Of a stretch of 64,000 bases of DNA, positions 1,666-27,076 are shown piece after piece (positions within the stretch are counted from its first letter, which is position 1; each line of letters opens with the position of its first letter). The DNA lies in the IMG/VR virus record IMGVR_UViG_2534682349_000001, one strand, 5' to 3'. The notes below the pieces were generated by a model, which worked only from the letters and a program-made list of their open reading frames with translations, did not search any database and had not been told where the DNA came from. This DNA comes from a virus (lineage: Duplodnaviria > Heunggongvirae > Uroviricota > Caudoviricetes). Made by a program: the position numbers and the translations under genes.

Positions 1666-2960
1666 TTAATAAAAGGTGGATTTTAACAGGAGGATATATG
1701 AAGTTTATTGATTTTTTCGCCGGGATTGGTGGCTTCCATTCTGGTTTAGAAAACGCCGGCCATGAAATGGTTGGTTGGGTTGAATGGGATAAGTTTGCTC
1801 GCCAATCATATGAAGCACTATACGATACAGAAGGGAAGTACACAGCTAGTGACATCAAATCAATTGAAAGCGGAAAAGAACTACCATCAGCAGACCTCTG
1901 GGCGTTCGGTAGCCCATGCACCAATATCAGTTTGGCCGGCAATCGAAAAGGACTCCAAGGAGAACAATCAAGCATGTTCTTTGAAGTTATCAGACTCCTT
2001 AAAGACAGAACTTGGGAAGAGAAACCTACCTATCTCCTCATGGAAAATGTTAAAAACCTACTTGGTTCAAACAAAGGATTTGACTTCTTCCGAGTTCTCT
2101 ATGAAATGGACGAAGCTGGGTATGATGTCGAATGGGAAGTGTTTAATTCCAGCTGGGTTATCCCTCAAAACCGCGAACGGGTATACATCATTGGACATAA
2201 GCGCGGCATAGAATATAAACCCGTCTTTCCTATCAATCGCGGTGAACTAGAGAAGAAGCGAAAGTACAACGTTCTACGTGATGTGCTTGAAACTAGTGTA
2301 GATAGCAAGTTTTACCTTTCTAAAGATAAGGTGGAACAATTACTAGTCAACGATAAAAAATCCACCTTTTTGAATACTGGTAAAGTCAAAATTTTTGGGA
2401 ACACTTCAAACACAGGATATGGCAGTGGAGACGTGTTACAGGAAGACGGAGTATCAAAGACATTAACTGCTACCGATTATAAACATCCAGTTAAAGTCGC
2501 CACCGAAGTAAAGCAAGTTGGAAATATTAGTCATTCAACTAGCTTTGGAGGGAATCCTCAAACAGGACGTGTTTACGATGAGTCTGGATTATCCCCTACA
2601 TTAAATACGATGCAGGGTGGTGGAAGAGAACCAAAAGTTTTAGTCGAACCATGTTTAACTCCTGATAGAGTTAATAAACGGCAGAATGGACGGCGTTTTA
2701 AGAACAATGATGAACCAAATTTCACGTTAACTGCGGCCGATCGTCATGGAATTTTGCTTAGTAACGGTAAAACATATGTTATTAGAAAATTGACTCCACT
2801 TGAATGTTGGAGATTGCAAGGATTCACAGATGAACAATTTAACAAAGCAAAGGAAGCTGGAGTAAGTAATAGTCAGCTTTATAAACAAGCCGGTAATGCG
2901 GTAACAGTACCAGTCGTCGAAGCAATTGGAGAGAAATTAAATGAAAAACTGGTTAAGTAA
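1656..2960 (+). CDS. DNA (cytosine-5)-methyltransferase
   Basis: Motif I FAGIGGF, PC motif GSPCTNIS, ENV motif LMENVKNL and QAGNAV near the C-terminus. 434 aa. Confidence 0.85.
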   Translation: MDLVNKRWILTGGYMKFIDFFAGIGGFHSGLENAGHEMVGWVEWDKFARQSYEALYDTEGKYTASDIKSIESGKELPSADLWAFGSPCTNISLAGNRKGLQGEQSSMFFEVIRLLKDRTWEEKPTYLLMENVKNLLGSNKGFDFFRVLYEMDEAGYDVEWEVFNSSWVIPQNRERVYIIGHKRGIEYKPVFPINRGELEKKRKYNVLRDVLETSVDSKFYLSKDKVEQLLVNDKKSTFLNTGKVKIFGNTSNTGYGSGDVLQEDGVSKTLTATDYKHPVKVATEVKQVGNISHSTSFGGNPQTGRVYDESGLSPTLNTMQGGGREPKVLVEPCLTPDRVNKRQNGRRFKNNDEPNFTLTAADRHGILLSNGKTYVIRKLTPLECWRLQGFTDEQFNKAKEAGVSNSQLYKQAGNAVTVPVVEAIGEKLNEKLVK

Positions 2961-3201
2961 GAACAAATATAAAATTATCATTTTACCTGCGGTTTTATTA
3001 GCTGGGATCTTCGTTGGTGGTTGTACTAATGGTGAAACAAAGGCAGATAGTCAGGATATTCTCGATGATGCTAGTTTTACCTCTAAAATTGTTGTAGATA
3101 AGGAAACAAGCGTTGAATACATTGTTGTTAAACGGGGCATTAATGTTTATGGTATTTCACCACGCTTAAATAGTGATGGGAAACCAATGGTTAAAGAATA
3201 A
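2941..3201 (+). CDS. putative lipoprotein
   Basis: N-terminal hydrophobic segment followed by a lipobox-like VGGC. Confidence 0.45.
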   Translation: MKNWLSKNKYKIIILPAVLLAGIFVGGCTNGETKADSQDILDDASFTSKIVVDKETSVEYIVVKRGINVYGISPRLNSDGKPMVKE

Positions 3202-3349
3202 AGGAGAATGAATTAAATGACAGGATTAAAAGCACAAATTAAGAAGTACTTACGTAGCAACGGGATTAACATGGTTACTAACGATCAAGGTCGTTCAATT
3301 CGTTTGGGTAATGCGAAAACACAAGATTTACTCAAGGTAGCAGTAAAGC

Positions 3350-3586
3350 ATGGTTTCTAAATTAAAGAAAAAGTTTTCAACCCTACCAACCTGGTTTCAA
3401 TACTATTTAATTATACTTTCTATATTTTTGGGCTTTGTACTTTTTATGTTTCTTCCAATATTTTTAGCAACCTTTTGTTTTTGTTCTGGACACTGGGTTT
3501 GGGGATTGCTAACGGTGTTCTTTGTTGCTCTTCCTTCAATAACATTTATCACTGTTTGGACAAATGAACACGATGGATGGTGGTAA
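3350..3586 (+). CDS. small membrane protein
   Basis: Two strongly hydrophobic segments. Confidence 0.4.
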   Translation: MVSKLKKKFSTLPTWFQYYLIILSIFLGFVLFMFLPIFLATFCFCSGHWVWGLLTVFFVALPSITFITVWTNEHDGWW

Positions 3587-3855
3587 CAATCGAGACATTA
3601 GTTAAAGAAAAGGAAGTTAAAAGCGCCCAGACTATAACGGCGTTGGGCTGTACTTATTGCCAGGAACCATACAAGAAAATGTGGTTATTTGACGGCTTAC
3701 TCTACTTGCAAATTGAACATGCCGATGGTCTGCATTATTTAAATGTAGTACCTAATGGTGATTCAGAAGACGTGGGGTTCTTGTATAATCTTTGCGCCAG
3801 TCAAGAAATACATTTTTGTCCTATGTGTGGAGAAAAATTTGAGGAGGAAGAATAA
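3577..3855 (+). CDS. hypothetical protein with a CxxC...CPMC zinc-ribbon-like motif
   Basis: Cys pairs CTYC and CPMCG. Confidence 0.4.
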   Translation: MVVTIETLVKEKEVKSAQTITALGCTYCQEPYKKMWLFDGLLYLQIEHADGLHYLNVVPNGDSEDVGFLYNLCASQEIHFCPMCGEKFEEEE

Positions 3856-4059
3856 ATGCACATTTACGAAGTAATGTTAAGTAAAGGATTACGTTTTGGT
3901 AGCCATATTGTGATAGCTAAGAACGAGGAAAATGCAAAAAGATTAGTTGCAGATATGCTTAATACAACACAGACCGCTATTTTCTATAAAGATAGTGACT
4001 TTGCAGTTAGCGGCCCGATTGATCCCGACAATTACTTCGAAGAGACGGTGATCGCTTAA
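3856..4059 (+). CDS. small conserved protein, paralog of the − strand gene 22845..23060
   Basis: MHIYEV...SGPIDPDNYFEETVIA resembles MHIYEVV...GSPIDPNDYAEETIIN encoded on the other strand. Confidence 0.5.
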   Translation: MHIYEVMLSKGLRFGSHIVIAKNEENAKRLVADMLNTTQTAIFYKDSDFAVSGPIDPDNYFEETVIA

Positions 4060-4319
4060 TGCTACATAAATACACAAAGATAACGGCTATTGAAGCTGAG
4101 CAGTTTGATGGTTCTGATGAAATGATGAATAAATATTGTATTACTGATGATGGCTGGGGAGAAACGTTCACTTTTCGGAAAGATAATAATTGTCTACCGC
4201 TAAAGCGTGGCTGGTGGATTATTAATCTTGGAAAGATTACCGTGTTTGATGTGACATTCACCGATTGGAGAACTATGAGTGATGAAAAATTTCGTAGAAC
4301 TTACAAGAGGTGTGATTAA
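4059..4319 (+). CDS. hypothetical protein
   Basis: 86-aa ORF joined to its neighbour by overlapping stop/start. Confidence 0.4.
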   Translation: MLHKYTKITAIEAEQFDGSDEMMNKYCITDDGWGETFTFRKDNNCLPLKRGWWIINLGKITVFDVTFTDWRTMSDEKFRRTYKRCD

Positions 4320-4549
4320 TGAGTAGTAGCAGAGCGAGAAATCATCAAGATTTAGTATGGGAAGCCCAGCATTTCAAACACTTTCATAGAAGATACGTTA
4401 AGCACTTCATGATTCGCTCATATCATTCAAAAACTCGATGGCGTCAATTAAGGAGAGAATGTCATATGAATATTTTCTCTTACCTATATCTTCACGCCAC
4501 TCGTATTAAATCAACACCTAGAGGAAAGTGGAGTGACAATAATGAATAA
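4319..4549 (+). CDS. hypothetical basic protein
   Basis: 76-aa ORF in a tightly packed same-strand run. Confidence 0.3.
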   Translation: MSSSRARNHQDLVWEAQHFKHFHRRYVKHFMIRSYHSKTRWRQLRRECHMNIFSYLYLHATRIKSTPRGKWSDNNE

Positions 4550-4748
4550 ATGGGAAATATTCATGCAAGGATTTTTCTCAGCGTTTAATTCTTATGCGTT
4601 ATTTATATCTGTATTTGGCGATTATAGAGTAAAGCTTATCACTGGAGCTGAATGGGTACTATCTGAACATCCTGGTTGGAAATTTGCTCTAGTATCACTT
4701 TTCTTGGTTGGATTAGTTTGTTCAATTTACAGTGTATGGAAAGGGTAG
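4533..4748 (+). CDS. small membrane protein
   Basis: Hydrophobic segments. Confidence 0.4.
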   Translation: MTIMNKWEIFMQGFFSAFNSYALFISVFGDYRVKLITGAEWVLSEHPGWKFALVSLFLVGLVCSIYSVWKG

Positions 4749-4920
4749 ATTTATGTACGACTTATTAGAAATTTTAGTATGGACTATTGGTGGGGTAGCT
4801 GTTTTCACATTAATAATGTTCATGGCTGCTTGTATGGCATCAGGTCATTTTGTTTTAGGGCTTGGAACCTTTGCACTTGTCCTTTTTATACTCCTTTCCA
4901 TAGCACACGAAGCTTTGTAA
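4732..4920 (+). CDS. small membrane protein
   Basis: Two transmembrane-like segments. Confidence 0.4.
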   Translation: MYGKGRFMYDLLEILVWTIGGVAVFTLIMFMAACMASGHFVLGLGTFALVLFILLSIAHEAL

Positions 4921-4941
4921 AGTCGTAGGAGGCTAATAAAT

Positions 4942-5793
4942 ATGGCAATTAAATTATTTAGCATAGGATTATTTGACGAGAAAGATGAGCTTACCAGAAT
5001 CAATATTGAAGTTTTCCCAGATCATACACCGCTTATTCATGTAGATATAGAAGGATTTGAGCTATCTACTCTCAAGCTCGAAATTAGATGGGATTATGAG
5101 AATGATTCTGAATTAATGGATCTCATTTATATTACACGTTATCTACAAGACAAAGGTGTTCCTCATATTGGTTTGACGATGCCTTACATTCCTAATGCAC
5201 GTTATGATCGGATCAATAACGCCGATGAAGTTTTTACGCTTAAATATTTTGCCGAAGTGATTAATTCCCTTCACTTTGATTATGTGGATGTTTTAGATGC
5301 ACATTCGAACGTTAGTCTTGCGTTGATTGATAGAGTACGGCAAATAGATGTTGCTCCGTTAATTCAAATGGCTATTGACGACTTTAAACCAGATGTTCTG
5401 TTTATGCCTGATGAGGGAGCACATAAACGTTACTCAAAGATGTTTACCCTTCCATCAACGTTTGGTATTAAGACACGGGATTGGAGAACGGGTGAGATCA
5501 AAGATTACTTCTTGGCTGAACAAAATTTAGTTGAAGATAGGCGTGTATTAATTATCGATGATATTTGTTCAAGAGGTGGTACTTTCTATTACGCTTCAAA
5601 ATTACTTCGTGATAATGGTGCTACTTCAACTGGTTTATATGTAACCCATTGCGAAGATAACATCGCTAATGGCAATTTACTCAATAAAGAAAAATCAGGC
5701 ATTGAACAAATTTATACAGCTAATCCACTATGGCACAGAGATATGACCACATCAGTGTATTCGCCATTAGACGAGATTAAAGTCATTAACTAG
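4942..5793 (+). CDS. ribose-phosphate pyrophosphokinase (Prs)-family protein; candidate ADPR-pyrophosphate synthetase (Adps-like) of a NARP1-type pathway
   Basis: PRPP-binding signature VLIIDDICSRGGT. About 283 aa, shorter than housekeeping Prs. Immediately upstream of a NAMPT homolog, with an AGGAGG RBS. Confidence 0.75.
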   Translation: MAIKLFSIGLFDEKDELTRINIEVFPDHTPLIHVDIEGFELSTLKLEIRWDYENDSELMDLIYITRYLQDKGVPHIGLTMPYIPNARYDRINNADEVFTLKYFAEVINSLHFDYVDVLDAHSNVSLALIDRVRQIDVAPLIQMAIDDFKPDVLFMPDEGAHKRYSKMFTLPSTFGIKTRDWRTGEIKDYFLAEQNLVEDRRVLIIDDICSRGGTFYYASKLLRDNGATSTGLYVTHCEDNIANGNLLNKEKSGIEQIYTANPLWHRDMTTSVYSPLDEIKVIN

Positions 5794-5803
5794 GAGGAAT
5801 TAA

Positions 5804-7324
5804 ATGACAAAACCGTATTTAGCAACAGATTTTTATAAAGTATCGCATGCAATGAGGCGACTAAATAAGCCAGCTCTTCACCCAGAAAGTATTGAATGTA
5901 TTTATGAAGTATTGACTCCTCGTCAAAACTCATTCTTCCCATATGACGACAAAATGGTTGTATTTGGTTATGAATTTTTTGTGGCACGTCTGTTGGGCGA
6001 ATGGCAAACAGAGTTCTTTGACAAAGATTGGGAAGATATTAAGTTAGACTTTTATGTATTTTTCGAAATGTCAGATAGCCTTGTTTATCGTTCAATGGTT
6101 GAAAAACTCAAGCAATTACATGATTTGGGACATTTACCATTAGAAATTCGGTCATTGCCTGAAGGGTCATTAGTCCCAATGAGAGTTCCTGTGTTATCAA
6201 TCAGAAATACTGATCCAGATTTCTATTGGCTTCCAGGATTCTTAGAAACGACACTACTCGCAAATACTTTTGTAACAACTGGTACTGCTAGTGTGGCACG
6301 TCAATTCCGTAAGATCGCTGAACATTATGGTGATGTTTCAGCAGACGATAAGGCTTATATTGATTTCCAATTCCACGACTTTTCACAACGAGGACAACAT
6401 GGAGATGATGCTGCCGTTCTTTCTGGTATCGGACACTTGTCTAGTTTTAAGGGGACAGATGCAGTTCCAGCCGTAGATGAATTATTAAGAGTATATGGTG
6501 GACTTACCCCAGATGAACTAATCGGTGGATCAGTTGTTGCTACAGAACATTCAATTATGGAATCACTTGGTGGTGAATTTGGAACAGATAAGGAAGGTCA
6601 ACTTAAAGCTTATGAGTCTTTAATAGATCGAAATCCAGATGGCGTCATTTCTGTTGTTTCAGACACCTACCAATATTGGGACGTTATTGATTATGTATTG
6701 CCACAACTTAAAGAAAAGATTATGGCTCGTGATGGCAAGTTAGTTATTCGTCCTGATTCTCTTGATGAGTATCGTAAGGCGACTGGTCAAACTATTAAGT
6801 CTACTGAAGATCAATTAGTAACAACACTCCAGGCGTTATATGACACTTTCGGCGGCCATATTAATTCTAAGGGATACAAAGTGCTTGACCAACATATCGG
6901 ATTAATTCACGGCGAAGGAATTACCCTAGATAATATTCGACCAATGTTTGACGCCATCTTAAATGCTGGTTTCTCTGCCGAAAATATTGTTTTCGGATTA
7001 GGAGCTTATGTTTATTCCGTTAAGGTCTCACGTGATGATTTCGGACAAGCTTTGAAAGCTACCGCTTGCGTTATTGATGGTAAAGAGAAAGTTATTTTTA
7101 AGGCACCTCATTCAAAAAAAGAAGCATTCAAGCGTTCTCCTCATGGGGCGGTATCAATCCATGGTAAATCTGGGGAATATCATATGATTGAAAATTTGAC
7201 TATGGAAGAAGCAGCTAACGATAAAGATAATCAAATGACTTTGCTGTACAGTCCCAAATACGGTAATCGTGTCACATCATTACGAGATATTCGACAGAAG
7301 ATTTTACATGAATTGTATAAGTGA
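5804..7324 (+). CDS. nicotinamide phosphoribosyltransferase (NAMPT/NadV) family protein; candidate Namat-like enzyme
   Basis: N-terminal TDFYKVSH motif typical of NAMPT. 506 aa. RBS GGAGGA. Confidence 0.8.
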   Translation: MTKPYLATDFYKVSHAMRRLNKPALHPESIECIYEVLTPRQNSFFPYDDKMVVFGYEFFVARLLGEWQTEFFDKDWEDIKLDFYVFFEMSDSLVYRSMVEKLKQLHDLGHLPLEIRSLPEGSLVPMRVPVLSIRNTDPDFYWLPGFLETTLLANTFVTTGTASVARQFRKIAEHYGDVSADDKAYIDFQFHDFSQRGQHGDDAAVLSGIGHLSSFKGTDAVPAVDELLRVYGGLTPDELIGGSVVATEHSIMESLGGEFGTDKEGQLKAYESLIDRNPDGVISVVSDTYQYWDVIDYVLPQLKEKIMARDGKLVIRPDSLDEYRKATGQTIKSTEDQLVTTLQALYDTFGGHINSKGYKVLDQHIGLIHGEGITLDNIRPMFDAILNAGFSAENIVFGLGAYVYSVKVSRDDFGQALKATACVIDGKEKVIFKAPHSKKEAFKRSPHGAVSIHGKSGEYHMIENLTMEEAANDKDNQMTLLYSPKYGNRVTSLRDIRQKILHELYK

Positions 7325-7337
7325 GGTTAATAAAATA

Positions 7338-7505
7338 ATGATTTTATCGTTCTTAATAACAGTAGGATTCTTTCTATTTACAGTTTTTCTAGCGTGCGCC
7401 ATGTGTTCAGATATTCCATGGCTAGAAATTCCAGCGGGAATTTTTATATTAGTGATGATGTTTGGGACACTGTGGTGGGCTGTTTACACGAGCTTCATAC
7501 AATAA
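7338..7505 (+). CDS. small membrane protein
   Basis: ORF track start 7269 overlaps NAMPT. An internal ATG at 7338 with a GAGG RBS gives MILSFLITVGFF... (hydrophobic). Confidence 0.4.
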   Translation: MILSFLITVGFFLFTVFLACAMCSDIPWLEIPAGIFILVMMFGTLWWAVYTSFIQ

Positions 7506-7520
7506 CGAAAGGTTGATTTA

Positions 7521-7910
7521 ATGGCAGAGAACAAAATTAATAAATTACGAAAGAAATTAAAGAAAATAATTAAAAAGTTTAATGAAAGTCAATGTAAGTA
7601 TGTAGCCGTTGGTAAACACGTAGACAATACAGATATTGTAATGATTATTGATTCTTATGGCGCTGATTCATTACGGCATATTCTTACTATTCGTCATAGT
7701 AATATTTATGCTGAAAAAGATGGTTTTACTATTAGTCCTACATTATTAGAATTTGTAGTTAAGGTTCAAGAAACATTACGAGAAATTAATGAATTAGAAA
7801 AGAAGGGTGAAAAGGTATCTTTAACCCATCCTGATATTCCCAAAATAAATAATCCATTTGATATTAATGACTCAATTACAAAATCAGCTCCAATTAAATG
7901 CGAATTGTAG
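7521..7910 (+). CDS. hypothetical protein
   Basis: 129-aa ORF. Confidence 0.4.
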   Translation: MAENKINKLRKKLKKIIKKFNESQCKYVAVGKHVDNTDIVMIIDSYGADSLRHILTIRHSNIYAEKDGFTISPTLLEFVVKVQETLREINELEKKGEKVSLTHPDIPKINNPFDINDSITKSAPIKCEL

Positions 7911-7923
7911 AGGCAATAAACAC

Positions 7924-8229
7924 ATGACTGAACTGAATTATAAAGAAAAAATAGAAATGCTTCGAGATAAACTAAGTGATTCGTTAAAGAACTATAACCG
8001 AATTCAAGATAACTATGTTGCTGTTGCGTCACGTTATGGCGGTGAAGATACTGTACATATTCTAAAGCCATATCAGATTGACAAGGCTGAACACGTATTA
8101 ACTGTTACTCACTTTGGTATCTATTTTGAATCTACAAGACGGATCTTTGTAGATGCTGCACTACTTTTAGTTATGGATAAGACCCGTGTAATGTTAAAAG
8201 AAATTGAAGAAGCAAAACCAAACCTATAA
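7924..8229 (+). CDS. hypothetical protein
   Basis: ATG at 7924 after an AGAGG RBS (MTELNYKEK...). It resembles the preceding ORF (VAVG/VAVAS ... HI..I.H), possibly a tandem paralog. Confidence 0.4.
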   Translation: MTELNYKEKIEMLRDKLSDSLKNYNRIQDNYVAVASRYGGEDTVHILKPYQIDKAEHVLTVTHFGIYFESTRRIFVDAALLLVMDKTRVMLKEIEEAKPNL

Positions 8230-8250
8230 TTACTAGGAGGAAACACATAA

Positions 8251-9444
8251 ATGGTAGCAACTAAAGGATTCAAGTACCCTGACCGTGAATTGTACGATTG
8301 GGTATTAAATGAACTACATAAACGAAATATTAATAATGAAACAATTGGCGAGATTGCATATGACATGCAACATCAATATTTACCACATTTAACCGTAGAA
8401 GATTTTGGAGCTCAATTGGACGAAGTGCTAAAGAAGCGAGAAGTGTTAAATATTCTTGCGACAGGGTTTGCTTTAGACAATTTGGCAAATGAAGGATTGT
8501 TGCCAGAACCTCTTCAAACCATTATCGCCAACGATTCTGGGGTTTTTGGAGTGGATGAGGGCCTTAGTTTAAGCCTTTCACAGCTTTATGGTTCTATCGC
8601 AGTTACTAATTATGGCTACGAGGACAAAGATAAGCCTGGTATTGCTGCTCAGCTTGATAATAGTAACGGTCAAGTTAATACATTCGCAGATGATTTAGCT
8701 TTAGCTCTTGCGTCAGCAGTAATTGGACGATGTGGTCATGGCTCTAAGCTAGAACTTGATGACAATACCGTAGAAGAAACTGTTGATGACGAATTTAGTG
8801 AGCTTAAATTTGTGGTAAATGGTAAAGAAGTTGAACCCCAAGTCGATTTAGTATATTTTGCAAAGCCTATTAAGAGTGATCGCAAATTACCTACTCGGAA
8901 TCTAAATAAGTTTGCACACGATTTAAATAAAGCAATTAACGATTCACGTGAACTTGCGGATAGATTAGAAGAAGAATTTAATCATGATTACTATGTTAAC
9001 TTGGAAGTAGGCATGAACGACGAATCTACTTGGCAACTAGTAATCGAATTACTTGATAACAAAATGGAATTAGTCGATGTAGTTCTTATCGATTTAGAAC
9101 ACATCCTTGACTATCTTGAAGTTAATTCGCCTAGTGAGTTTGTTGACGCGGCACAAATGATTGCTCAATTCGTATTTGAACACGATCTTTATCCATATCC
9201 AGAGGACAGTAATGATTTAGAAGAATCAAATGACGAAGATACCTCTAGTAGTATCGAAAATAGTATCCAGCATATCGCTCAAGAATTAGAAAGCATTGTA
9301 AAACAAGCTACTGGAGACCAAGATTCTTCTCCCAGGAACAATCCACTAGATAAACTACTGCAAATTATGCTACTTGCAGGCGATGTTTGGGGTAATCAAG
9401 AAAATTTGAGCAGTAATAATCGAAAGGATGATGCTAATGAATAA
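8251..9444 (+). CDS. hypothetical acidic protein (397 aa)
   Basis: Long ORF with an AGGAGG RBS. No motif confidently recognised. Confidence 0.45.
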   Translation: MVATKGFKYPDRELYDWVLNELHKRNINNETIGEIAYDMQHQYLPHLTVEDFGAQLDEVLKKREVLNILATGFALDNLANEGLLPEPLQTIIANDSGVFGVDEGLSLSLSQLYGSIAVTNYGYEDKDKPGIAAQLDNSNGQVNTFADDLALALASAVIGRCGHGSKLELDDNTVEETVDDEFSELKFVVNGKEVEPQVDLVYFAKPIKSDRKLPTRNLNKFAHDLNKAINDSRELADRLEEEFNHDYYVNLEVGMNDESTWQLVIELLDNKMELVDVVLIDLEHILDYLEVNSPSEFVDAAQMIAQFVFEHDLYPYPEDSNDLEESNDEDTSSSIENSIQHIAQELESIVKQATGDQDSSPRNNPLDKLLQIMLLAGDVWGNQENLSSNNRKDDANE

Positions 9445-9799
9445 CGAAACACAAGAAAACATTGATATGAAATTGAGCCCAGATAATATTTACGGCTACA
9501 TTTTTACAACCCAGGGCTATTCAGAAGATCAAGACGACAAACGTAAGAAACCGTTATTCTTCTGGAAAGGATTCCATATGTATCCACTTGTTGTGCAAAA
9601 TCCAGAAGACTATGATTTTGAAGATCCAGATTTTGATGCAACAGAATTGGAATTCTTGGTTTGTACAGAAGGTGGAGACCAAGATAACTATGAGTATGTT
9701 GAAATGAATGCAACGGAACTGCGTGATTTCTTACGTGCGCATCCAGCATTCCGTATGTTCCCAGCAGCAGACTTATTTGAAGAATTACATGTGATTTAA
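9428..9799 (+). CDS. hypothetical acidic protein
   Basis: 123-aa ORF. Confidence 0.4.
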   Translation: MMLMNNETQENIDMKLSPDNIYGYIFTTQGYSEDQDDKRKKPLFFWKGFHMYPLVVQNPEDYDFEDPDFDATELEFLVCTEGGDQDNYEYVEMNATELRDFLRAHPAFRMFPAADLFEELHVI

Positions 9800-9800
9800 T

Positions 9801-10424
9801 ATGGCTCAATTATTCTTTAAATATGGGGCGATGAACGCTGGCAAATCATTGTCTCTATTGACTACAGCTCATAATTATCAAGAACAAAATAAAGATGTTC
9901 TGATTATGACTAGTGCCATCGATGATCGCTATGGCGTTGGAAAGGTTTCAAGTCGAGTAGGATTAAGTTGTGAAGCACAACCAATTAAACCAGAAGATAA
10001 CGTAATTGAATTGATTGCAAAGTTATTGAAGTTAGATATAGAAGGAAGAACTGTTTGGCCACACTGCATTTTAATCGACGAAGCTGAATTCTTAACTGCA
10101 CAGCAAGTCGTTGATTTAGCTAATATTGTTGACACATATAATATTCCAATCATTTGCTATGGCTTACGGACTGATTTTCAATGTAATCTGTTTGAAGGAT
10201 CAAAAACATTATTTGAGGTAGCAGATAAATTAGAGGAAATCAAAACAGTATGTCAATGGTGTGACCATAAAGCAACAATGAATTTAAGAATGGTAGATAG
10301 CGCCCCGGTCTATGATGGAGAGCAAATTCAAATTGGCGACCAGGAATATATCTCAGTTTGCCGATACCATTACACAAATCCAGTAATTAAAGTAACTAAG
10401 AAAAATAAAGAAAAGGAAGTATGA
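9801..10424 (+). CDS. tdk: thymidine kinase
   Basis: MAQLFFKYGAMNAGKS P-loop and the C-terminal CQWC...CRYHY zinc ribbon typical of type II Tdk. Confidence 0.9.
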   Translation: MAQLFFKYGAMNAGKSLSLLTTAHNYQEQNKDVLIMTSAIDDRYGVGKVSSRVGLSCEAQPIKPEDNVIELIAKLLKLDIEGRTVWPHCILIDEAEFLTAQQVVDLANIVDTYNIPIICYGLRTDFQCNLFEGSKTLFEVADKLEEIKTVCQWCDHKATMNLRMVDSAPVYDGEQIQIGDQEYISVCRYHYTNPVIKVTKKNKEKEV

Positions 10425-10479
10425 TACTATTTTACTAAACACTAAGAATAACAACGACGTAAAGATTGCATTAACAGCT

Positions 10480-11052
10480 ATGGGAGCATTAGCACTAGGT
10501 CTTGTAGCAACAGGAACAACGGCAAATGCTGACACAACTATTGACAGCAACCACGTGCAAGTAGAAGCGGGTGACACATTATCTGCCATCGCTCAAAAGC
10601 ATGGAACCGACGTTGATACTCTTGTGCGTGAAAATCATATTGCAAACAAACATTTAATTCACGTAGGAGATAAGTTGGTTGTTATGCCTGGTGTAAAGAA
10701 CACTGATGTAAACGGGCAAGATACCGATAATCATGTAACGAACCCTGTAACTACACCAACTAGCGACCAACAAAATACTACAACTAATACCTTACCAGTT
10801 ACTCAACAAGCACCCGCTACAAGCGGTATTTCAAGCAACTCAGCTAAGGAAGCTATCGCCCAAAAGGAATCCGGCGGTAGTTACACAGCTACAAACGGTA
10901 AGTATATTGGGCGCTACCAACTTGATGCGAGTTATTTAAATGGTAATTACTCAATCGAAAATCAAGAAAAAGTGGCTGAACAATATGTGGCTCAAAGATA
11001 CGGTAGTTGGGACGCTGCTTTAGCATTCCATAATGCACATGGCTGGTACTAA
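10480..11052 (+). CDS. secreted LysM-domain protein with a C-terminal IsaA/SceD-type transglycosylase-like domain
   Basis: LysM-like segment GDTLSAIAQKHGTDVDTL. C-terminal ESGGSY...GKYIGRYQ...WD...GW pattern. Thr/Asn-rich linker. Followed by a strong terminator. Confidence 0.65.
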   Translation: MGALALGLVATGTTANADTTIDSNHVQVEAGDTLSAIAQKHGTDVDTLVRENHIANKHLIHVGDKLVVMPGVKNTDVNGQDTDNHVTNPVTTPTSDQQNTTTNTLPVTQQAPATSGISSNSAKEAIAQKESGGSYTATNGKYIGRYQLDASYLNGNYSIENQEKVAEQYVAQRYGSWDAALAFHNAHGWY

Positions 11053-11162: not shown

Positions 11163-11270
11163 AAGTGTTATTTGTTTGTAATAACACTTCCTAATTTAAG
11201 CTATTTTAGCGATCGTTTTTCTGGTAAAATAAAGAAGTGTTATAATTCTATATATCAAAAAATAACACTT
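11163..11270. promoter_or_regulatory. two palindromic operator-like inverted repeats (GAAGTGTTAT-N8/18-ATAACACTTC) upstream of the recombinase gene
   Basis: Arms at 11163–11172/11181–11190 and 11234–11243/11262–11270. TATAAT lies inside the second repeat. Confidence 0.45.
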
Positions 11271-11285
11271 GTATTAGGTGGTTTT

Positions 11286-11879
11286 ATGAAACAGTTAGTC
11301 TTGCCTATAAAAGACTCTTATGTATTATCTGAAGTACAAGATACGTTACTAAATAACTTTAGAGCTGGTGTTAGAAACTACACTATTTTTCAAGTTGGAA
11401 AAGCTACCTTACTTCGAGTAAGTGACGTACTCAGATTAAAACAAGAAGATGTCTATGATAAATATGGTGAGGTAAAAAGAAATGCATTTATTAAAGACAA
11501 AAAGACAGGTAAGCAAAATACATTGTATTTAAAACCTGTCCGTGAAGATTTAGAAAATTACAAAAAATGGTTAGAAGAAAATGATTATTATTTAACAACG
11601 CCCTGGTTATTTCCTTCAACTACCAGACCCAACAAACATATTGACGAAAGGCAATATTATACGGTCATGCACGAAGTTGGAGATCTCTTGGACATTCCAT
11701 ATCTTGGAACACACACTATGAGAAAGACTGGGGCATATCGAGTTTATGTACAGAGTAATTATAATATCGGATTAGTCATGTCATTACTTAACCATTCATC
11801 AGAAGAAATGACCCTGAGATATTTGGGATTAGATCAAGTATCCCGGGAAAGATTGTTGGACAAGGTCGATTTTGGGTAA
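11286..11879 (+). CDS. tyrosine recombinase/integrase-family protein (short, catalytic domain only)
   Basis: R...H-x-x-R...Y signature in LLRVSDVLRL ... GTHTMRKTGAYRVY ... MTLRYLGL. Start taken at ATG 11286 (MKQLVLPI). Confidence 0.6.
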   Translation: MKQLVLPIKDSYVLSEVQDTLLNNFRAGVRNYTIFQVGKATLLRVSDVLRLKQEDVYDKYGEVKRNAFIKDKKTGKQNTLYLKPVREDLENYKKWLEENDYYLTTPWLFPSTTRPNKHIDERQYYTVMHEVGDLLDIPYLGTHTMRKTGAYRVYVQSNYNIGLVMSLLNHSSEEMTLRYLGLDQVSRERLLDKVDFG

Positions 11880-15110: not shown

Positions 15111-15182
15111 ATCTATATGATATAATACTAAAGCAGGCAAGTTTTAAGGACGGTGGCCGATTCCTGACTGGAGGTGGTTCAT

Positions 15183-15359
15183 ATGGACTTCACCATTATG
15201 AAAGGATTATCGGCACATGAGCGCTTACCAAGCACTTATGTTAATGTTGACATTTGCGACATTTATTATCGCATTGTTAACCTTTATTTTCACATTTTGT
15301 GCATAATAAAAGACCGTCCTCGTATAACTTTGGCGAGTTGCAGGACGATCTTTTATTAG
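15183..15359 (+). CDS. small ORF (58 aa) inside an inverted-repeat-flanked mini-cassette. An alternative 29-aa hydrophobic peptide (MSAYQALMLMLTFATFIIALLTFIFTFCA) lies in another frame.
   Basis: GGAGGTG RBS 8 nt before the ATG. Own terminator at 15315–15357. Flanked by roughly 29-bp imperfect inverted repeats at 15130–15159 and 15374–15402. Confidence 0.25.
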   Translation: MDFTIMKGLSAHERLPSTYVNVDICDIYYRIVNLYFHILCIIKDRPRITLASCRTIFY

Positions 15360-17995: not shown

Positions 17996-18604
17996 TTAGA
18001 ACACCTTCCCGTCGTAAGGCTTGAACATAACATCGTGGAAATCAAAATCTCTCGCTTCGCTTAATGTAATAATTCGAGTATTGCCACAACCGACCATCAA
18101 ATTAAGCGGAATATCTTTTTCATCATCAGGAATGATTAAAATATTTGGCTTGTGTAAAGCATAAAGTACCCCTTGTTCATACGTCTGACCAACGTCTGGT
18201 TTACTTGGCATAAATAATCCAATACCCATTTCCATGCCATACATTGCGTGCATATCCATTTGGTATGTATTCTGTTGCCATTCACGGTCTCCCATTACTT
18301 CTGGGTGTTCATTTACATCAATGTCATTGTATTGATGGCTTAATGGGTGGTGACTGTATTGCAATGAAACCGATGGATTTTGGCCTAATGCTTCTAATCC
18401 CTTTTCCATAAAATCAATTTCTTCTGGACTGAACCACGAGCATTGAATATATGCGCGGACTGCCGAAACGCCATTATGAACTACTACATCTTCATATTTG
18501 CGCCCTGCTAATTCAACGGAGCCGTTTTGTACTGGCAATCCTCCAGCAATAGCCTCCAAGAATAATTTACTTGTTTCTGGTTGATGTGTGTTTTCTTGTG
18601 CCAT
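17996..18604 (-). CDS. ndt: nucleoside 2-deoxyribosyltransferase
   Basis: Close match to the Lactobacillus NDT pattern: WF...DEHPE...GxEMGxxL...IPDDEKDIPLNLM...DFDFH...YDGKVF (catalytic Glu context). Confidence 0.8.
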   Translation of the reverse strand: MAQENTHQPETSKLFLEAIAGGLPVQNGSVELAGRKYEDVVVHNGVSAVRAYIQCSWFSPEEIDFMEKGLEALGQNPSVSLQYSHHPLSHQYNDIDVNEHPEVMGDREWQQNTYQMDMHAMYGMEMGIGLFMPSKPDVGQTYEQGVLYALHKPNILIIPDDEKDIPLNLMVGCGNTRIITLSEARDFDFHDVMFKPYDGKVF

Positions 18605-24685: not shown

Positions 24686-25471
24686 TTAAGCTGCTTCCTT
24701 ATCGTCAGCATCATATTCGCCTTCATGGTCAGTAAGCTGTAAATTAGTTAAAGCACCAATTAGTTCTAAGTGCTTAGCGTTATCAATAGAACCAACTTCT
24801 AACAACTTATCGTAAATTTGACGTAAGACCGTCTTTCTATCTTCAAGATTTTCCATGAAGTCATACTTGTCTCCATCAATAACCAATAATGGAGACTTGT
24901 CGTAGGTATGTTTCCAATCTTCGTAATACTCAAGTAAAGTTTTGTAGTAATTGACTAAAGATGGATCATTTTCAATTTGTTCATATTCACGGCCACGCTT
25001 TTTAATTCGCTTAAGCATAGTCTCATACGAAACATTAATCATAACCATTAAATCAGGAGCCTTTTTCCCAGGACTAAATTTAGGATATTCTTCCATCATA
25101 TTGTCTAGAAGTTGTTTATAGATGTCATATTCTTCCTGTGTCGTATTGCCCATATCTGCGTTCATACGCATAAAAATGGCGTCTTCGAAGATTGACCTAT
25201 CCAGGACGTTATTATTGTTTTGCATTGCTTTTTTAATGAGATCGAAACGTCTATTTACAAAAAACACCTGTAATACGAACGCAAATGGGTTTGTCGCTTT
25301 CATATCCCCTTCCGCTCTCTTCTTTGCCACATCCTCATTTCCCTGATAGAACAATTTCAGCACTGGATTGTCCGTTACTGGTTCATAAAATGGTTCTGTT
25401 CCTAATTGTTCTGCTAAAATCTTGGTCATCGAGCTTTTGCCGCTCCCAATGATTCCTGACATCGTAATCAA
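24686..25471 (-). CDS. deoxynucleoside kinase (dNK/dGK family)
   Basis: P-loop GIIGSGKSS at the N-terminus, dNK-family length (261 aa), ERS/DRS-like motif region. Confidence 0.8.
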   Translation of the reverse strand: MITMSGIIGSGKSSMTKILAEQLGTEPFYEPVTDNPVLKLFYQGNEDVAKKRAEGDMKATNPFAFVLQVFFVNRRFDLIKKAMQNNNNVLDRSIFEDAIFMRMNADMGNTTQEEYDIYKQLLDNMMEEYPKFSPGKKAPDLMVMINVSYETMLKRIKKRGREYEQIENDPSLVNYYKTLLEYYEDWKHTYDKSPLLVIDGDKYDFMENLEDRKTVLRQIYDKLLEVGSIDNAKHLELIGALTNLQLTDHEGEYDADDKEAA

Positions 25472-25603: not shown

Positions 25604-25664
25604 ATGAGGTAGATGGGAATCGAACCCACATCCTAGCATGATCTACCAATTGAACTACTACCTC
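25604..25664 (-). tRNA. tRNA-like element, truncated (61 nt). It has an acceptor stem, a D-like arm and a T arm but no anticodon arm.
   Basis: 7-bp acceptor GAGGTAG/CTACCTC and T arm GTGGG-TTCGATT-CCCAT. Only about 9 nt sit where the 17-nt anticodon arm should be. Confidence 0.25.
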
Positions 25665-25956
25665 TGTCGGCTTTGTACACTCACCAACATTCCAAAGATC
25701 TTATTTTAAGCTCACAAATTTATTACACGGATAGGAGCTAGGTTCTACGTTTACCTGAATCGCCGTGGTTTCTATAAGAAATTTCTAACAACGAGGGAGC
25801 TACCCTCCGGCTTCAATTTATCGGAAGTGAAACCTTAGACGCTACGTTTCCTATTTATAGACGGATACACGTCTTCTTCGTTATCACCCACTCTGCCGTA
25901 CACCTTCATTGTGTATGATTGAGCTACTCTAGCACATAATGTGACGATCAATCCCC

Positions 25957-26035
25957 GTGCTGGAGGTTGGACTCGAACCAACAACCTGATGATTAAAACG
26001 AATATGGAGTAGACGGGAGTCGAACCCGTGTCCAA
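25957..26035 (-). other. two tandem tRNA 3'-half-like elements (T arm plus 3' acceptor strand) with no matching 5' halves
   Basis: GTTGG-TTCGAGT-CCAAC plus CTCCAGCA, and ACGGG-TTCGACT-CCCGT plus CTACTCCA. No complementary 5' acceptor strand lies within 90 nt. Confidence 0.3.
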
Positions 26036-26441
26036 CCAAACCAGTTTCCAAATACATTTTAGACTTAATAGGACTATGTTCTAAATTTTCGACTTAGGGA
26101 ACGTTACATAGTAATTTTCCAAAAACTACCTAGTCTAGCTAGTTTTAATACTTAGTCACACTCAAACTAGCAAATCATGAACTAAGACCAGAGGGGTGAA
26201 ATATGATAGCTAATATCCTTATCTGGTATCAAAATATTAACCAAGTGCCTATAAGCTAGGCAGCTAAAGCTGTAACTCTATGGTTATTTGCTTTTATATT
26301 TAAATGAAAGTATTTCGGCGTTATCTTCCGTAAGTCGTATTTAGGGCTTTATTTGACTGTCGAATCCATAAACTACCCCAGAATAGAACTTTAAATCATA
26401 GCTCCAAATAATAACTCAAATCGACTTCTTAATGAAGTCTA

Positions 26442-26515
26442 TAACACATACAGGATTTGAACCTGTGACCTCTTACCATTTCGGTAAGTGCTCTACCTAG
26501 CTGAGCTAATGTGTT
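26442..26515 (-). tRNA. tRNA with an atypical anticodon loop; isotype unresolved (loop CGAAATG, no U33)
   Basis: Perfect 7-bp acceptor AACACAT/ATGTGTT, canonical D arm GCTCAGCTAGGTAGAGC and T arm ACAGG-TTCAAAT-CCTGT. Anticodon stem CTTAC/GTAAG. Confidence 0.45.
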
Positions 26516-26981
26516 ACTTATATATCAAAATATTTATTCTGGTGGAACCCCTAACAGCTTTTGCCTTATTCCACATTTATTCCTACTAGCTTCATAGGAT
26601 GGGCATAGTCCTTATCCCTGCTAAGGGGCGCTGTCGTTACTCGCTGAATATTTTGATATGTTCTTGTTAAGGGAGACTCATTTCAAGACCTCAACATCAG
26701 TCGGTTGAATGACTACTTACGCGCTAAGGATGTATACTATCCTTTCATCATCTTCCCACCTGGTAGCTAACCCCACTCACGGATTCCGCACATGCCTACG
26801 CTCCGTCAGCGAATATTGTACCTGTCTTTTATAAAATCCTGATTTTCTCACCTGTTCAGGTTCAGTCTTGAATTAAAACCTCTGCGATCGGTCGTAACCT
26901 TTAATGCAAAGGGATTGTTCTTAAAGATTGATAGCTACGATTTTGTTTTATTTTGCGACCTCGGCTATCTGCTTGCCGCTA

Positions 26982-27076
26982 TACTCCCACCGAGACTCGA
27001 ACTCGGATCATCCAATAATCTGTTGGCATTCGCTCGGGTATAGACCGAGAGCCTTACCAATTAGGCCATGGGAGTG
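26982..27076 (-). tRNA. class II (long variable arm) tRNA with anticodon-loop sequence TCTATAC; isotype uncertain
   Basis: Acceptor ACTCCCA/TGGGAGT, D arm GCCTAATTGGTAAGGC, anticodon stem CTCGG/CCGAG, about 27-nt variable arm, T arm with TTCGAGT. Confidence 0.5.

Follow-up and report, generated by a model that had tools for sequence, protein, structure and literature searches.

Does a Prs-like gene followed by a NAMPT-like gene in a phage genome rebuild NAD+ from ADP-ribose, as NARP1 does, or does it only feed the canonical salvage of nicotinamide? The original prediction for this locus favored NARP1. The pair lies in a 64 kb stretch of DNA (the window). The whole genome is longer, with matching contigs of up to 85 kb (SRR20792826). 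We analyzed the layout of the locus, the family and residues of both proteins, and the rest of the window.

Layout of the gene pair

The features of the locus are:

4927..4932, + strand: Shine-Dalgarno AGGAGG of the Adps-like gene, 9 nt 5' of the start codon (read from the sequence)
4942..5793, + strand: Adps-like gene (ADPR-pyrophosphate synthetase, Prs/PRPS fold), 283 aa (ORF, PHROG, HMM, tree and residue mapping)
5792..5797, + strand: Shine-Dalgarno AGGAGG of the Namat-like gene, 6 nt 5' of the ATG (read from the sequence)
5804..7324, + strand: Namat-like gene (nicotinamide ADP-ribose transferase, NAMPT fold), 506 aa (ORF, PHROG, tree, residues and AlphaFold2)

In the ORF list, the first frame contains VLIIDDICSRGGT and the second TDFYKVSH. 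The original prediction placed the Prs-like gene directly upstream of the NAMPT-like gene, and its positions and strand are exact. No gene lies between them. On the + strand, there is no terminator-like site within 2800-10600, hence none inside the pair. The second AGGAGG shares nucleotides with the Adps stop codon (TAG, 5791-5793) and precedes the Namat ATG by 6 nt, which suggests that the translation of the two genes is coupled.

Osterman et al. define NARP1 as a Prs-family gene and a Nampt-family gene within 10 genes, typically a two-gene operon. The present genes fall within this operational definition, as neighbors on the same strand with a gap of 10 nt. The homology matches of the pair, and of the PnuC-like and glutaredoxin-like genes treated below, are strong and far beyond chance.

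The first protein belongs with Adps

The Adps-like protein matches Pfam Pribosyltran with 29 bits, just above the cutoff, and PHROG 619 'ribose-phosphate pyrophosphokinase' (2e-62). Its closest characterized relative is the Adps of Bacillus phage SPbetaL1 (36.8% identity, 118 bits). The match to E. coli Prs is weaker (24% identity, 47 bits). On TIGR01251, the curated Prs model with a cutoff of 113, it reaches 80.6 bits, its best Prs-model score relative to cutoff. Validated or canonical Adps score 85-127 bits and E. coli Prs 423. On the equivalog Prs models, it obtains 26-89 bits against cutoffs of 296-536, and E. coli Prs obtains 423-533 bits on the curated NCBIfam/TIGRFAM Prs models. So the protein lies below every curated NCBIfam/TIGRFAM Prs cutoff, like validated Adps.

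An Adps-HMM, built from six Adps outside the protein's own lineage, gives it 198 bits. The Prs of E. coli, M. jannaschii and S. solfataricus receive 88-122. In a neighbor-joining (distance) tree with only these three Prs as outgroups, two of them partial, the Prs stand apart from all Adps in 100/100 bootstraps. A place inside housekeeping Prs was the outcome that the original prediction set against itself; the tree puts the protein in the Adps clade instead. Its argument from length did not hold. A protein of 283 aa was said to favor Adps, but archaeal class III Prs chains have 284-291 aa, so length alone cannot separate the two families. The discriminators are a missing C-terminal module and a remodeled donor site (PMC13586617). 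By its scores and its tree position, the 4942-5793 protein is assigned to the Adps clade and not to Prs.

Residue mapping to the ICP1 Adps gave the following positions:

F25, R87, H121, D157, K177, I186, D206-D207: key residues of the Adps-like protein, K177 being catalytic
C209-S210-R211-G212-G213-T214: PP loop of the Adps-like protein
F215, Y217: lid of the Adps-like protein

K177 aligns with K162 of SPbetaL1 and K185 of ICP1, both proven essential (10.1101/2024.02.11.579819; PMC13586617). The acceptor-site set is complete (K177, R87, H121, D157, D206, D207 and F25). As aligned, these residues are common to Prs and Adps; they are necessary and not discriminating.

The donor site is more informative. 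According to the 2026 structures of ICP1 Adps, the hallmarks of Adps are a remodeled donor site (PP loop and beta-hairpin) and the loss of the alpha11-alpha12 PRPS module (PMC13586617). In the window protein, R211 takes the place of the Thr in the Prs [D/S]TGGT loop (by alignment only). At the lid, every Adps and 120/120 relatives have Phe (F215 in the window protein), and Prs has L, M or I. The hairpin residue I186, conserved in Adps, is present. The C-terminus falls at most 3 residues from the end of ICP1 Adps, and E. coli Prs extends further. This matching end indicates that the C-terminal alpha11-alpha12 module is missing. The active-site check that the original prediction proposed thus gave donor-site features which, by alignment, are of the Adps type.

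Two other markers were discarded. The hairpin motif K-x-R-D-x-x-T-G-E-I is not exclusive to Adps, since a Sulfolobus class III Prs carries a similar one. Likewise, ICP1 F92 is not a diagnostic adenine contact; Adps differ from one another at this position, the validated SPbetaL1 enzyme included.

The second protein groups with Adps-linked Namats

The NAMPT-like protein matches Pfam NAPRTase (89 bits) and PHROG 448 'nicotinamide phosphoribosyl transferase' (1e-141). The Pfam NAMPT_N domain was not detected in it. Against the SPbetaL1 Namat (9w5x/9w5w) it scores 322 bits, and against the human and Xanthomonas Nampts about 150-160. The Nampt of an Adps-less Aeromonas T4-like phage shows the reverse pattern (Xanthomonas 357, human 315, Namat 163-174 bits). 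These three served as Nampt references, the KVP40 NadV being absent from the 50 kb segment examined. Two stand-ins were used: Escherichia phage dune for Bas63 (both described as Felixounavirus) and Constella for mycobacteriophage DyoEdafos.

A Namat-HMM gives the window protein 431 bits and a Nampt-HMM 227 bits. In a neighbor-joining tree with only three outgroup sequences, Nampts and Namats separate in 100/100 bootstraps, and the window protein is on the Namat side. On the general family model PRK09198, it reaches 389 bits, below the cutoff of 405, and is the most divergent of those tested. The alignment proposed originally was run for both proteins, and each is nearer to Adps or Namat than to Prs or Nampt, by score and by tree.

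The conserved residues are D9, Y11, F193, S194, R196, D219, A246, H249, R316, D318, G400, R410 and D411. All NMN-site and catalytic residues are kept, and R316 is the equivalent of SPbetaL1 R306. The AlphaFold2 model (pLDDT 93.8) has a helix at 401-406, and its top Foldseek matches are 9ke8 and 9w5x/9w5w. The fold comparison was rejected as a discriminator: Namat and HdNadV (about 1e-45) rank above Nampts (about 1e-38), yet the TM-scores are all 0.80-0.85.

Judged on these comparisons, the 5804-7324 protein groups with Adps-linked Namats and not with Nampts. The NadV of H. ducreyi (HdNadV) nests inside the Namat clade, so clade membership alone does not prove specificity for ADPR-PP.

A variant selectivity clamp

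The substrate-selecting clamp of the window Namat comprises:

G400-A-Y402-V-Y404-S-V406-K407-V-S409-R410-D411: SCH
S43-F44-F45: SCL
G370-E371-G372: AMP-contacting residues

The SCH, GAYVYSVKVSRD, does not match the published motif GSxΦxΦxΦTRD literally. Positions 3 (Y402) and 5 (Y404) are aromatic, with Val (V406) at position 7. K407 is an additional residue, and Ala stands in place of Ser2 and Ser in place of Thr9. The AMP-contacting G-D-[A/S] is G-E-G, and Gly at its third position is also found in Nampts and HdNadV. The adenine-stacking signature of the SCL consists of Arg as third residue, or of an aromatic fourth residue after Lys or Tyr. In the window loop, Q-N-S43-F44-F45, the third residue is Ser instead of Arg, Lys or Tyr. 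Aromatic residues follow at the fourth and fifth positions; the Felixounavirus (K-W-F) and Kayvirus (K-Y-Y) Namats likewise have aromatics there.

These substitutions belong to a subclade (100/100 bootstraps) with its own pattern at the entrance: SCL NS[YF]F, G-E-G, and SCH GAYVYSVxxSRD with the extra residue and without the position-7 aromatic. It includes the lineage of the window phage, Brochothrix A9, the P100/A511-type phages of Listeria and numerous uncultured phages of Bacillota (Firmicutes). The residues are nearly invariant in it: A401 and Y404 in 92/92 sequences, S405 in 91/92, Y402 and G372 in 89/92, E371 in 88/92 and V406 in 87/92.

In SPbetaL1 Namat, double mutants of the clamp lose activity to a different extent: 2.4-fold in R40A/Y396K, 4.3-fold in F392G/Y396K and 16.6-fold in R40A/F392G. 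They lose NAD+ synthesis and keep NMN synthesis (10.1101/2024.02.11.579819; PMC12774641). Our literature search yielded no experiment on a member of the variant subclade, A9 and the Listeria P100/A511-type phages included. As the clamp departs from the published signature, the preference of the window Namat for ADPR-PP over PRPP is a prediction.

A tentative proposal, possible but doubtful, is that the whole AMP/adenine-binding entrance was rebuilt in this subclade and then frozen by selection. It would represent a second, structurally distinct recognition of ADPR-PP or a shifted donor specificity. Such a shift could mean dual use of PRPP and ADPR-PP, or the use of another nucleotide-diphosphoribose pyrophosphate made by the partner Adps.

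Linkage, host and neighboring genes

Each variant-subclade Namat that we examined is preceded, directly or almost directly, by an Adps homologue. The cases come from A9, an ENA contig of 78 kb, a scaffold of 379 kb, a Vagococcus replicon of 135 kb, a Paraclostridium MAG and an L. lactis contig. Homologues of 820-882 aa were considered as Adps-Namat fusions and hence as Rosetta-stone evidence. They are Namats split by inserts of about 300 aa and were rejected as fusions. Between independent metagenomic contigs, the pair is 99.93% identical, and the DNA just downstream diverges. Megablast found no match to the locus among phage genomes, and the scan of isolate-genome contigs for a host gave only relatives at 28-37%. 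The host is a low-GC Gram-positive bacterium, probably a lactic acid bacterium.

Two further genes of the window were considered:

30384-30659, - strand: glutaredoxin/NrdH-like gene (Pfam Glutaredoxin; NrdH model 66.9, below the cutoff of 85.75)
30726-31484, - strand: PnuC-like gene (TIGR01528 86.3 against a cutoff of 42.45; PHROG 1880, 5.5e-60)

The original prediction had named both. The PnuC-like gene stands, as it passes TIGR01528; the redoxin is a glutaredoxin by Pfam, and the narrower NrdH label falls short of its cutoff. The prediction also suggested that the element may join the rebuilding of NAD+ with precursor uptake, and the gene context does not support this link: PnuC is 23 kb away, on the other strand, and has no NadR-like partner. 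Its neighbors are the glutaredoxin, an SPFH protein and small ORFs. The gene set to which it belongs (dNK, nucleoside deoxyribosyltransferase, PgpA and TK) is common to Lactobacillus phage Lb338-1, whose examined stretch of 10.7 kb has no NARP1 gene. We therefore rejected PnuC as part of a NARP3-like system, given the missing NadR partner and the nucleoside-salvage context. A PgpA-domain protein (8251-9444) was also rejected as an Adpp-like phosphatase. It is beside NARP1 only in near-identical relatives, and the PgpA-x-TK arrangement is conserved in the Lb338-1 stretch.

The window also encodes ParA, an actin-like partition protein, three tyrosine-recombinase genes, and PemK and Fic modules. 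A C5 methylase gene (1656-2960) is near the pair, and ArdA is elsewhere in the window.

Proposed mechanism and alternatives

Clade placement, scoring against solved structures, catalytic residues, donor-site features and the adjacency of the two genes agree with the central NARP1 claim. The pair is very probably a NARP1 operon of Adps and Namat; the substrates of the enzymes and the anti-defense phenotype in the natural host are what we infer from sequence. A defense NADase of the host (SIR2, TIR or SEFIR type) would split NAD+ into ADP-ribose and nicotinamide. With ATP, the Adps (4942-5793) would put pyrophosphate onto the free ribose of ADP-ribose and form ADPR-PP. The Namat (5804-7324) would exchange this pyrophosphate for nicotinamide and form NAD+. 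The cofactor would be regenerated directly, without an NMN intermediate and without an adenylyltransferase. In competition (PRPP, ADPR-PP and nicotinamide), SPbetaL1 Namat makes only NAD+, and Bas63 still rescues an NAD+-depleted host without pncC and nadR.

The Pfam, PHROG and GenBank annotations describe a canonical salvage. A true PRPP synthetase and a true Nampt would raise NMN by a NARP2-like logic, and an adenylyltransferase of the host, or of the phage outside the window, would complete NAD+. The acceptor-side residues that Adps has in common with Prs are compatible with ribose-5-phosphate use (PMC13586617), and the genome extends beyond the window. We consider this reading very unlikely. 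The Prs-like protein is below the curated Prs cutoffs, lies in the Adps clade and has an Adps-type donor site, and SPbetaL1 Adps gave no product with ribose-5-phosphate. The NAMPT-like protein is outside the PRPP-preferring Nampt clade. In the window ORFs of at least 86 aa and the small ORFs flanking the pair, there is no Nmnat (CTP_transf_like) or NadR domain. Besides, Osterman et al. saw no phage with both NARP1 and NARP2. Even less credible is the same chemistry with another purpose, namely ADP-ribose recycling for housekeeping or regulation in a plasmid-like or lysogenic lifestyle. The partition proteins, recombinases, PemK and Fic suggest a temperate or phage-plasmid lifestyle, and bacterial NARP1 copies exist outside prophages. 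Against it, every phage NARP1 tested to date counters NAD+-depleting defenses, and the pair is in an early-type array beside counter-defense genes (the C5 methylase; ArdA elsewhere).

A relaxed specificity is somewhat less improbable, though still unlikely. The pair would derive from NARP1 with a Namat that uses PRPP about as well as ADPR-PP. ADPR-PP would give NAD+, PRPP of the host would give NMN, and NadR or NadD, also of the host, would finish the second route. SPbetaL1 Namat itself makes NMN from PRPP if ADPR-PP is absent (10.1101/2024.02.11.579819; PMC12774641), and its clamp double mutants retain this capacity while NAD+ synthesis drops. The window protein has no position-7 aromatic and, like Nampts and HdNadV, has Gly at the 362-equivalent; HdNadV is a Namat-clade enzyme serving as a Nampt. 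Nevertheless, a pocket nearly invariant in 92 sequences suggests selection on a defined binding site rather than decay. Unlike HdNadV, the window protein keeps the position-3 aromatic, with F44 and F45 where the Felixounavirus (Bas63-proxy) and Kayvirus Namats have the stacking residue. In SPbetaL1, the loss of activity is smaller in the double mutants with an exchanged Y396 than in R40A/F392G, and the linkage to Adps is kept throughout the variant subclade. The NARP1 operon thus remains the preferred reading.

Significance

The pair is a correct but ordinary NARP1 find with one unusual detail, the substrate-selecting clamp of its Namat. NARP1, a recent discovery, lets viruses reverse an immune response: they restore the metabolite that the response destroyed. 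The range of NARP1 is extended here to a lineage of uncultured phages whose hosts are low-GC Gram-positive, probably lactic acid, bacteria. This is relevant to the ecology of phages and hosts in dairy and gut, and to phage design.

We judge the methodological outcome more useful than the find itself. Calling a protein 'Namat' by overall similarity is unsafe, because HdNadV shares the clade and nevertheless serves as a Nampt. A large Adps-linked subclade, with well-known Listeria and Brochothrix phages among its members, escapes the published clamp signature. Either the signature needs widening or the enzymes of this subclade differ in specificity.

Comparison with known systems

HdNadV (pNAD1; 9KE8/9KEO) was crystallized with NMN (PDB 9ke8) and is used as a Nampt that yields NMN. 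Its match to the window Namat (321.6 bits) is as strong as that of SPbetaL1 Namat. However, the 5.6 kb plasmid of HdNadV has no Adps, and the window pair has one. In the HdNadV clamp, Gln and Arg occupy positions 3 and 7 and the SCL is SNEQA, whereas the window protein retains the position-3 aromatic.

NARP2 and NARP3 are, like the window pair, phage routes that restore NAD+. NARP2 (Nampt and Nmnat of KVP40) has a PRPP-preferring Nampt-clade enzyme and an Nmnat in the same genome, without Adps. The window has an Adps, a protein outside the Nampt clade, and no Nmnat in its 64 kb. NARP3 joins a PnuC-like NR transporter with a NadR-like bifunctional NR kinase/NMN adenylyltransferase, and neither gene of the Bas30 system worked alone (PMC13464706). 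The window has a PnuC-family gene and no NadR-like domain. Extended forms of NARP1 carry, within or beside the operon, a Macro-domain ADPR-1''-phosphate phosphatase (Adpp; NARP1-AP) or an RyR-domain glycosidase (RyDEP). No Macro (PF01661, PF14519, PF20016) or RyR (PF02026) domain flanks the pair or occurs elsewhere in the window, which separates it from both forms.

The Adps of the Vibrio phage ICP1 has structures in the apo, ADPR/ATP and ADPR-PP/AMP states (PMC13586617). It has 280 aa and is only 30% identical to the window protein, with the equivalences F18/R87/H121/D161/K185/I194/D212/D213/I214/C215/F221 = F25/R87/H121/D157/K177/I186/D206/D207/I208/C209/F215. The adenine contact F92 is N92 in the window. 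The PP loop of the window protein is S-R-G-G-T and that of ICP1 D-G-A-A-S; the initial S occurs in SPbetaL1 too.

The closest cultured relatives of the Namat are those of Brochothrix A9 (gp144/gp145) and the Listeria P100/A511-type phages (Herelleviridae), with 44-45% identity. They have in common with the window the variant clamp (GA[YF]VYSVxVSRD, GEG, NS[YF]F) and the order Adps then Namat. The A9 Adps is only 28% identical to that of the window, which is nearer to Phass-1 (38%) and SPbetaL1 (37%). The two genes therefore have partly different histories.

The NARP1 of SPbetaL1 (Adps WIT26982.1, Namat WIT26983.1; 9W5X/9W5W) has the same gene order and tight spacing, and both Adps are below the Prs family cutoffs. 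The Namats are 37.1% identical and conserve R306/R316 and every NMN-site residue. Only the window protein has a 6-residue insertion after H15 (residues 19-24). The clamp differs: SPbetaL1 has SCL R40, SCH GSFTYQY-NTRD and G-D-A at 360-362, in place of S43-F44-F45, the variant SCH and G-E-G.

A probable Adps-Namat gene pair

The original prediction read two adjacent genes as NARP1, in which Adps makes ADPR-PP from ADPR and ATP, and Namat joins it with nicotinamide to give NAD+. Both open reading frames are in place:

4942-5793 (+), predicted Adps (window Adps): 283 aa, including VLIIDDICSRGGT; Pfam phosphoribosyltransferase domain at 29 bits, plus an N-terminal Prs (PRPP synthetase) domain below threshold
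5804-7324 (+), predicted Namat (window Namat): 506 aa, including TDFYKVSH; Pfam NAPRTase family (89 bits)

In PHROGs, the first matches a phage family annotated as ribose-phosphate pyrophosphokinase (2e-62) and the second one annotated as nicotinamide phosphoribosyltransferase (1e-141). The genes are 10 nt apart. AGGAGG precedes each of them, and that of Namat overlaps the Adps stop codon. We found no terminator-like site on the + strand from 2800 to 10600. The pair belongs to a long gene array on one strand, which runs from 147 to about 14000 in an element with 35% GC.

Positions 1670-7357, with both genes, are 99.93% identical to a Logan contig. An exact copy of the Adps protein is present on 12 metagenomic contigs, the longest of 85 kb. 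Three of these contigs were read in detail and keep the gene order of the window. A megablast of the locus against 50,697 phage records gave no match.

NARP1 is the best-supported explanation, given the clade placement of Adps and Namat, the catalytic residues and the Adps-type donor site. We regard NARP1 chemistry as quite probable for this pair.

The first enzyme: Adps or Prs

On TIGR01251, the curated Prs model, the window protein scores 80.6 bits, under the cutoff of 113. The Adps of SPbetaL1, ICP1, A9 and Constella score 106, 98, 97 and 85 bits, a Felixounavirus protein 127, and E. coli Prs 423. On curated Prs models, the window protein thus resembles validated Adps, unlike Prs. Its BLAST identities are 38% with the Adps of Phass-1, 36.8% with that of SPbetaL1 (at 118 bits) and, for E. 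coli Prs, 24% (at 47 bits). An Adps-HMM, built from six Adps that are all outside its lineage, gives it 198 bits versus 88-122 for three real Prs. In the neighbour-joining tree, these three split from all Adps in 100/100 bootstraps, and the window protein lies within the Adps group.

The residues selecting ADPR had been proposed as a further check, which the structures of ICP1 Adps make possible. F25, R87, H121, D157, K177, D206 and D207 are all present but shared with Prs, so they do not discriminate. The 2026 structures of ICP1 Adps show that the ADPR contacts are mostly Prs heritage, and that the hallmarks of Adps are a rebuilt ATP-donor site and a missing regulatory C-terminal module (PMC13586617). 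In the window protein, R211 stands where the Prs loop has threonine, and I186 is present. At the lid, F215 is the phenylalanine that all Adps and 120/120 relatives share, and Prs has L, M or I. The C-terminal end of the window protein lies at most 3 residues from that of ICP1 Adps. These features point to an Adps-type donor site and an Adps-type loss of the C-terminal module.

Two other characters carry no weight. The short length, taken earlier to favour Adps, is not diagnostic because archaeal Prs chains have 284-291 aa. The K-x-R-D-x-x-T-G-E-I hairpin is discounted because a Sulfolobus class III Prs has it too.

The second enzyme and its selectivity clamp

Against solved structures, the window Namat gives 322 bits with SPbetaL1 Namat (9W5X/9W5W) and 150-160 with human, mouse and Xanthomonas Nampt, the PRPP-preferring, NMN-forming relative. 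The Adps-less Nampt of a T4-like Aeromonas phage shows the reverse pattern (357 and 315 bits with Nampts, 163-174 with Namat). The Namat/Nampt split has 100/100 bootstraps. All residues of the nicotinamide and ribose-phosphate sites are kept, with the catalytic histidine and the essential arginine R316 (equivalent to R306). Foldseek places Namat-type structures on top, by a small margin.

NadV from Haemophilus ducreyi is a control for this assignment. Its structure 9KE8 is the equal-best PDB match of the window Namat, and it was crystallised with NMN (structures 9KE8/9KEO). In the literature this classic bacterial Nampt serves to produce NMN. Its place in the tree is within the canonical Namat clade, and the Namat-HMM gives it 633 bits; therefore, overall similarity alone cannot assign ADPR-PP specificity. 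It has lost the aromatics of the clamp, with Gln at position 3 and Arg at position 7 (GAQTYQ-RNTRD). No Adps is present on its 5.6-kb plasmid pNAD1 (nadV at L035:3828-5315, in the fetched plasmid sequence). This suggests a Namat lineage reverted to, or co-opted for, plain Nampt function. The argument for ADPR-PP rests on Adps linkage and the clamp aromatics; the window shows the linkage and half of the aromatics.

Namat is defined by a selectivity clamp of two elements, whose loop, SCL, gives a stacking residue (Lan et al., PMC12774641). The clamp GS[FY]xYQ[YFM]-xTRD is common to the Namats of SPbetaL1, a Felixounavirus (standing in for Bas63), a Kayvirus, ICP1 and a mycobacteriophage (standing in for DyoEdafos). 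Nampts have GGGLLQ. The window clamp is GAYVYSVKVSRD, with an aromatic at position 3, Val at position 7, one residue more, Ser to Ala and Thr to Ser. In place of the AMP-contacting G-D-[A/S], the window Namat has G-E-G, and its SCL reads Q-N-S-F-F. By its sequence, the clamp is not of the canonical type. The AlphaFold2 model (pLDDT 93.8) has a short helix, 401-406, at the expected place of the clamp helix.

The variant marks a subclade with 100/100 support, made up of the window Namat and those of Brochothrix phage A9 and Listeria phages of the P100 type, together with numerous proteins from metagenomes. The altered positions are nearly invariant across it, so the pocket was remodelled and maintained, with no decay. 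Every member inspected has an Adps gene upstream. The Adps of A9, partner of a variant-clamp Namat, and of Kayvirus, partner of a canonical one, tend to cluster (75/100 bootstraps, moderate), which would fit a common intermediate. In SPbetaL1 Namat, activity loss is 2.4-fold for R40A/Y396K, 4.3-fold for F392G/Y396K and 16.6-fold for R40A/F392G (PMC12774641). For the two clamp elements that matter more, Y402 and the aromatic SCL residues of the window are plausible counterparts. Our literature search found no paper with an experimental test of any member. The remaining interest lies in the specificity of this subclade and in the lesson of NadV for annotation.

Variability around the locus

Similarity to the Logan contig is lost straight after the Namat stop codon. 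Positions 7358-7501 have no alignable DNA, a single 78% patch extends to 8214, and identity returns to 89-95% further on. The variable region 7358-8214 overlaps these small reading frames:

7269-7505, small ORF
7521-7910, small ORF
7858-8229, small ORF

The contig has one small ORF in this place, against two paralogous ones (129 and 123 aa) in the window. Hypervariable cassettes that adjoin an anti-defence operon are where more counter-defence genes typically occur.

Some collected Namat homologues (P0161, P0180, P0184, P0188, P0190, P0194) reach 820-882 aa through an insert of ~300 aa, which follows either residue ~265 or residue ~320 of the window Namat. These inserts may be inteins. In Escherichia phage dune (Felixounavirus; L004:1051-4249), an HNH homing endonuclease gene lies between Adps and Namat, and Namat is ~100 aa longer. 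Matches to the Namats of Listeria phages are also split in two. It seems that selfish elements are drawn to the locus.

Lactococcus lactis contig RIDJ01000091.1 (L034:536-3667) has a NUDIX hydrolase (242 aa), Adps and a variant-clamp Namat, in this order. The hydrolase could supply the pathway, e.g. with ADPR split off a conjugate, or be its competitor, as an ADPR pyrophosphatase. Phage Phass-1 (genetic code 15; L002:3435-6537) has a gene annotated as nicotinamidase directly upstream of the pair. This combination is puzzling: the enzyme would destroy the nicotinamide that Namat requires.

The carrier element and its host

The element encodes a RecD2-like and a DnaB-like helicase, a Sak4-like annealing protein, an exonuclease and DNA polymerase III beta, as well as a thymidine kinase, a deoxynucleoside kinase, a nucleoside 2-deoxyribosyltransferase and a C5 DNA methylase. 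Its genes for replication and metabolism match phage families. The 64-kb window has no capsid or tail genes. The nearest cultured phages by gene are Brevibacillus phage Sundance and Thomasclavelia phages (helicase) and Lactobacillus phage Lb338-1 (PnuC and both kinases), all large Bacillota (Firmicutes) phages. Other features are:

11172-11879, 43472-44740 and 44914-45984, three tyrosine-recombinase genes
15111-15286 (+), rli28 Listeria small RNA family (Rfam RF01492, full-length, 73.5 bits vs gathering score 45)
26002-26379 (-), tmRNA within 25605-29996 (Rfam 76 bits; tag peptide ANNHRVTALAA)
60156-61361, actin-like partition protein
61880-62659, ParA partition gene

A tRNA cluster follows the tmRNA (8 by Rfam, 6 by ARAGORN), including an unusually long 94-nt tRNA-Ile(TAT). 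The rli28 match is intergenic, where the + strand block switches to the - strand block. A scan of the pooled ORFs within 14338-62659 found ArdA anti-restriction, Fic/DOC and PemK/MazF toxin proteins. That an element of phage type carries plasmid-like and conflict genes suggests a lifestyle that is temperate or that of a phage-plasmid. From the PnuC and kinase similarities, the Lactococcus-labelled homologues and the Listeria-type small RNA, a lactic acid bacterium, or a relative of one, is the probable host.

PnuC and other NAD+ routes

The original prediction suggested that the element may add precursor uptake by PnuC to the NARP1 pair.

30726-31484 (-), PnuC-like transporter
24686-25471 (-), 17996-18604 (-) and 9801-10424 (+), its companion genes, listed as deoxynucleoside kinase, nucleoside 2-deoxyribosyltransferase and thymidine kinase
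8251-9444 (+), protein of 397 aa; PgpA-type phosphatase domain at the N-terminus (Pfam 54 bits; PHROG 12432, 2e-73), long acidic extension at the C-terminus

Family models confirm PnuC as genuine. Its gene context does not support a link to the pair, as it is 23 kb away, on the opposite strand and has no NadR-like partner. PnuC, the two kinases and the deoxyribosyltransferase are 40-66% identical to a compact cluster in Lb338-1; for the gene set to which PnuC belongs (both kinases, the deoxyribosyltransferase and PgpA), the range is 42-66%. The fetched Lb338-1 stretch has no NARP1 genes. The 104 phage records with a PnuC homologue all belong to phages of Enterococcus, Lactobacillus, Weissella, Lactococcus or Listeria. 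The cargo of these transporters may be (deoxy)nucleosides or nicotinamide riboside. It is possible that PnuC aids NAD+ supply via the NadR of the host. We infer, with no supporting literature found, that (deoxy)nucleoside uptake is equally compatible with its context. The 8251-9444 protein also weakly resembles the CobZ/CbiS alpha-ribazole phosphatase (30 bits). The PgpA-x-thymidine kinase order is kept in Lb338-1, which argues for a probable role in nucleotide metabolism rather than NARP1.

Of the known NARP1 add-ons, the window has neither the Macro-domain phosphatase Adpp nor the RyR-domain glycosidase. NARP2 requires a Nampt-clade enzyme and Nmnat, and the window has neither. NARP3 (2026) consists of a PnuC-like transporter and a NadR-like enzyme, which are inactive as single genes (PMC13464706); the window, with PnuC and no NadR-like partner, has half a NARP3. 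The window pair is probably another case of NARP1, with its biology already explained.
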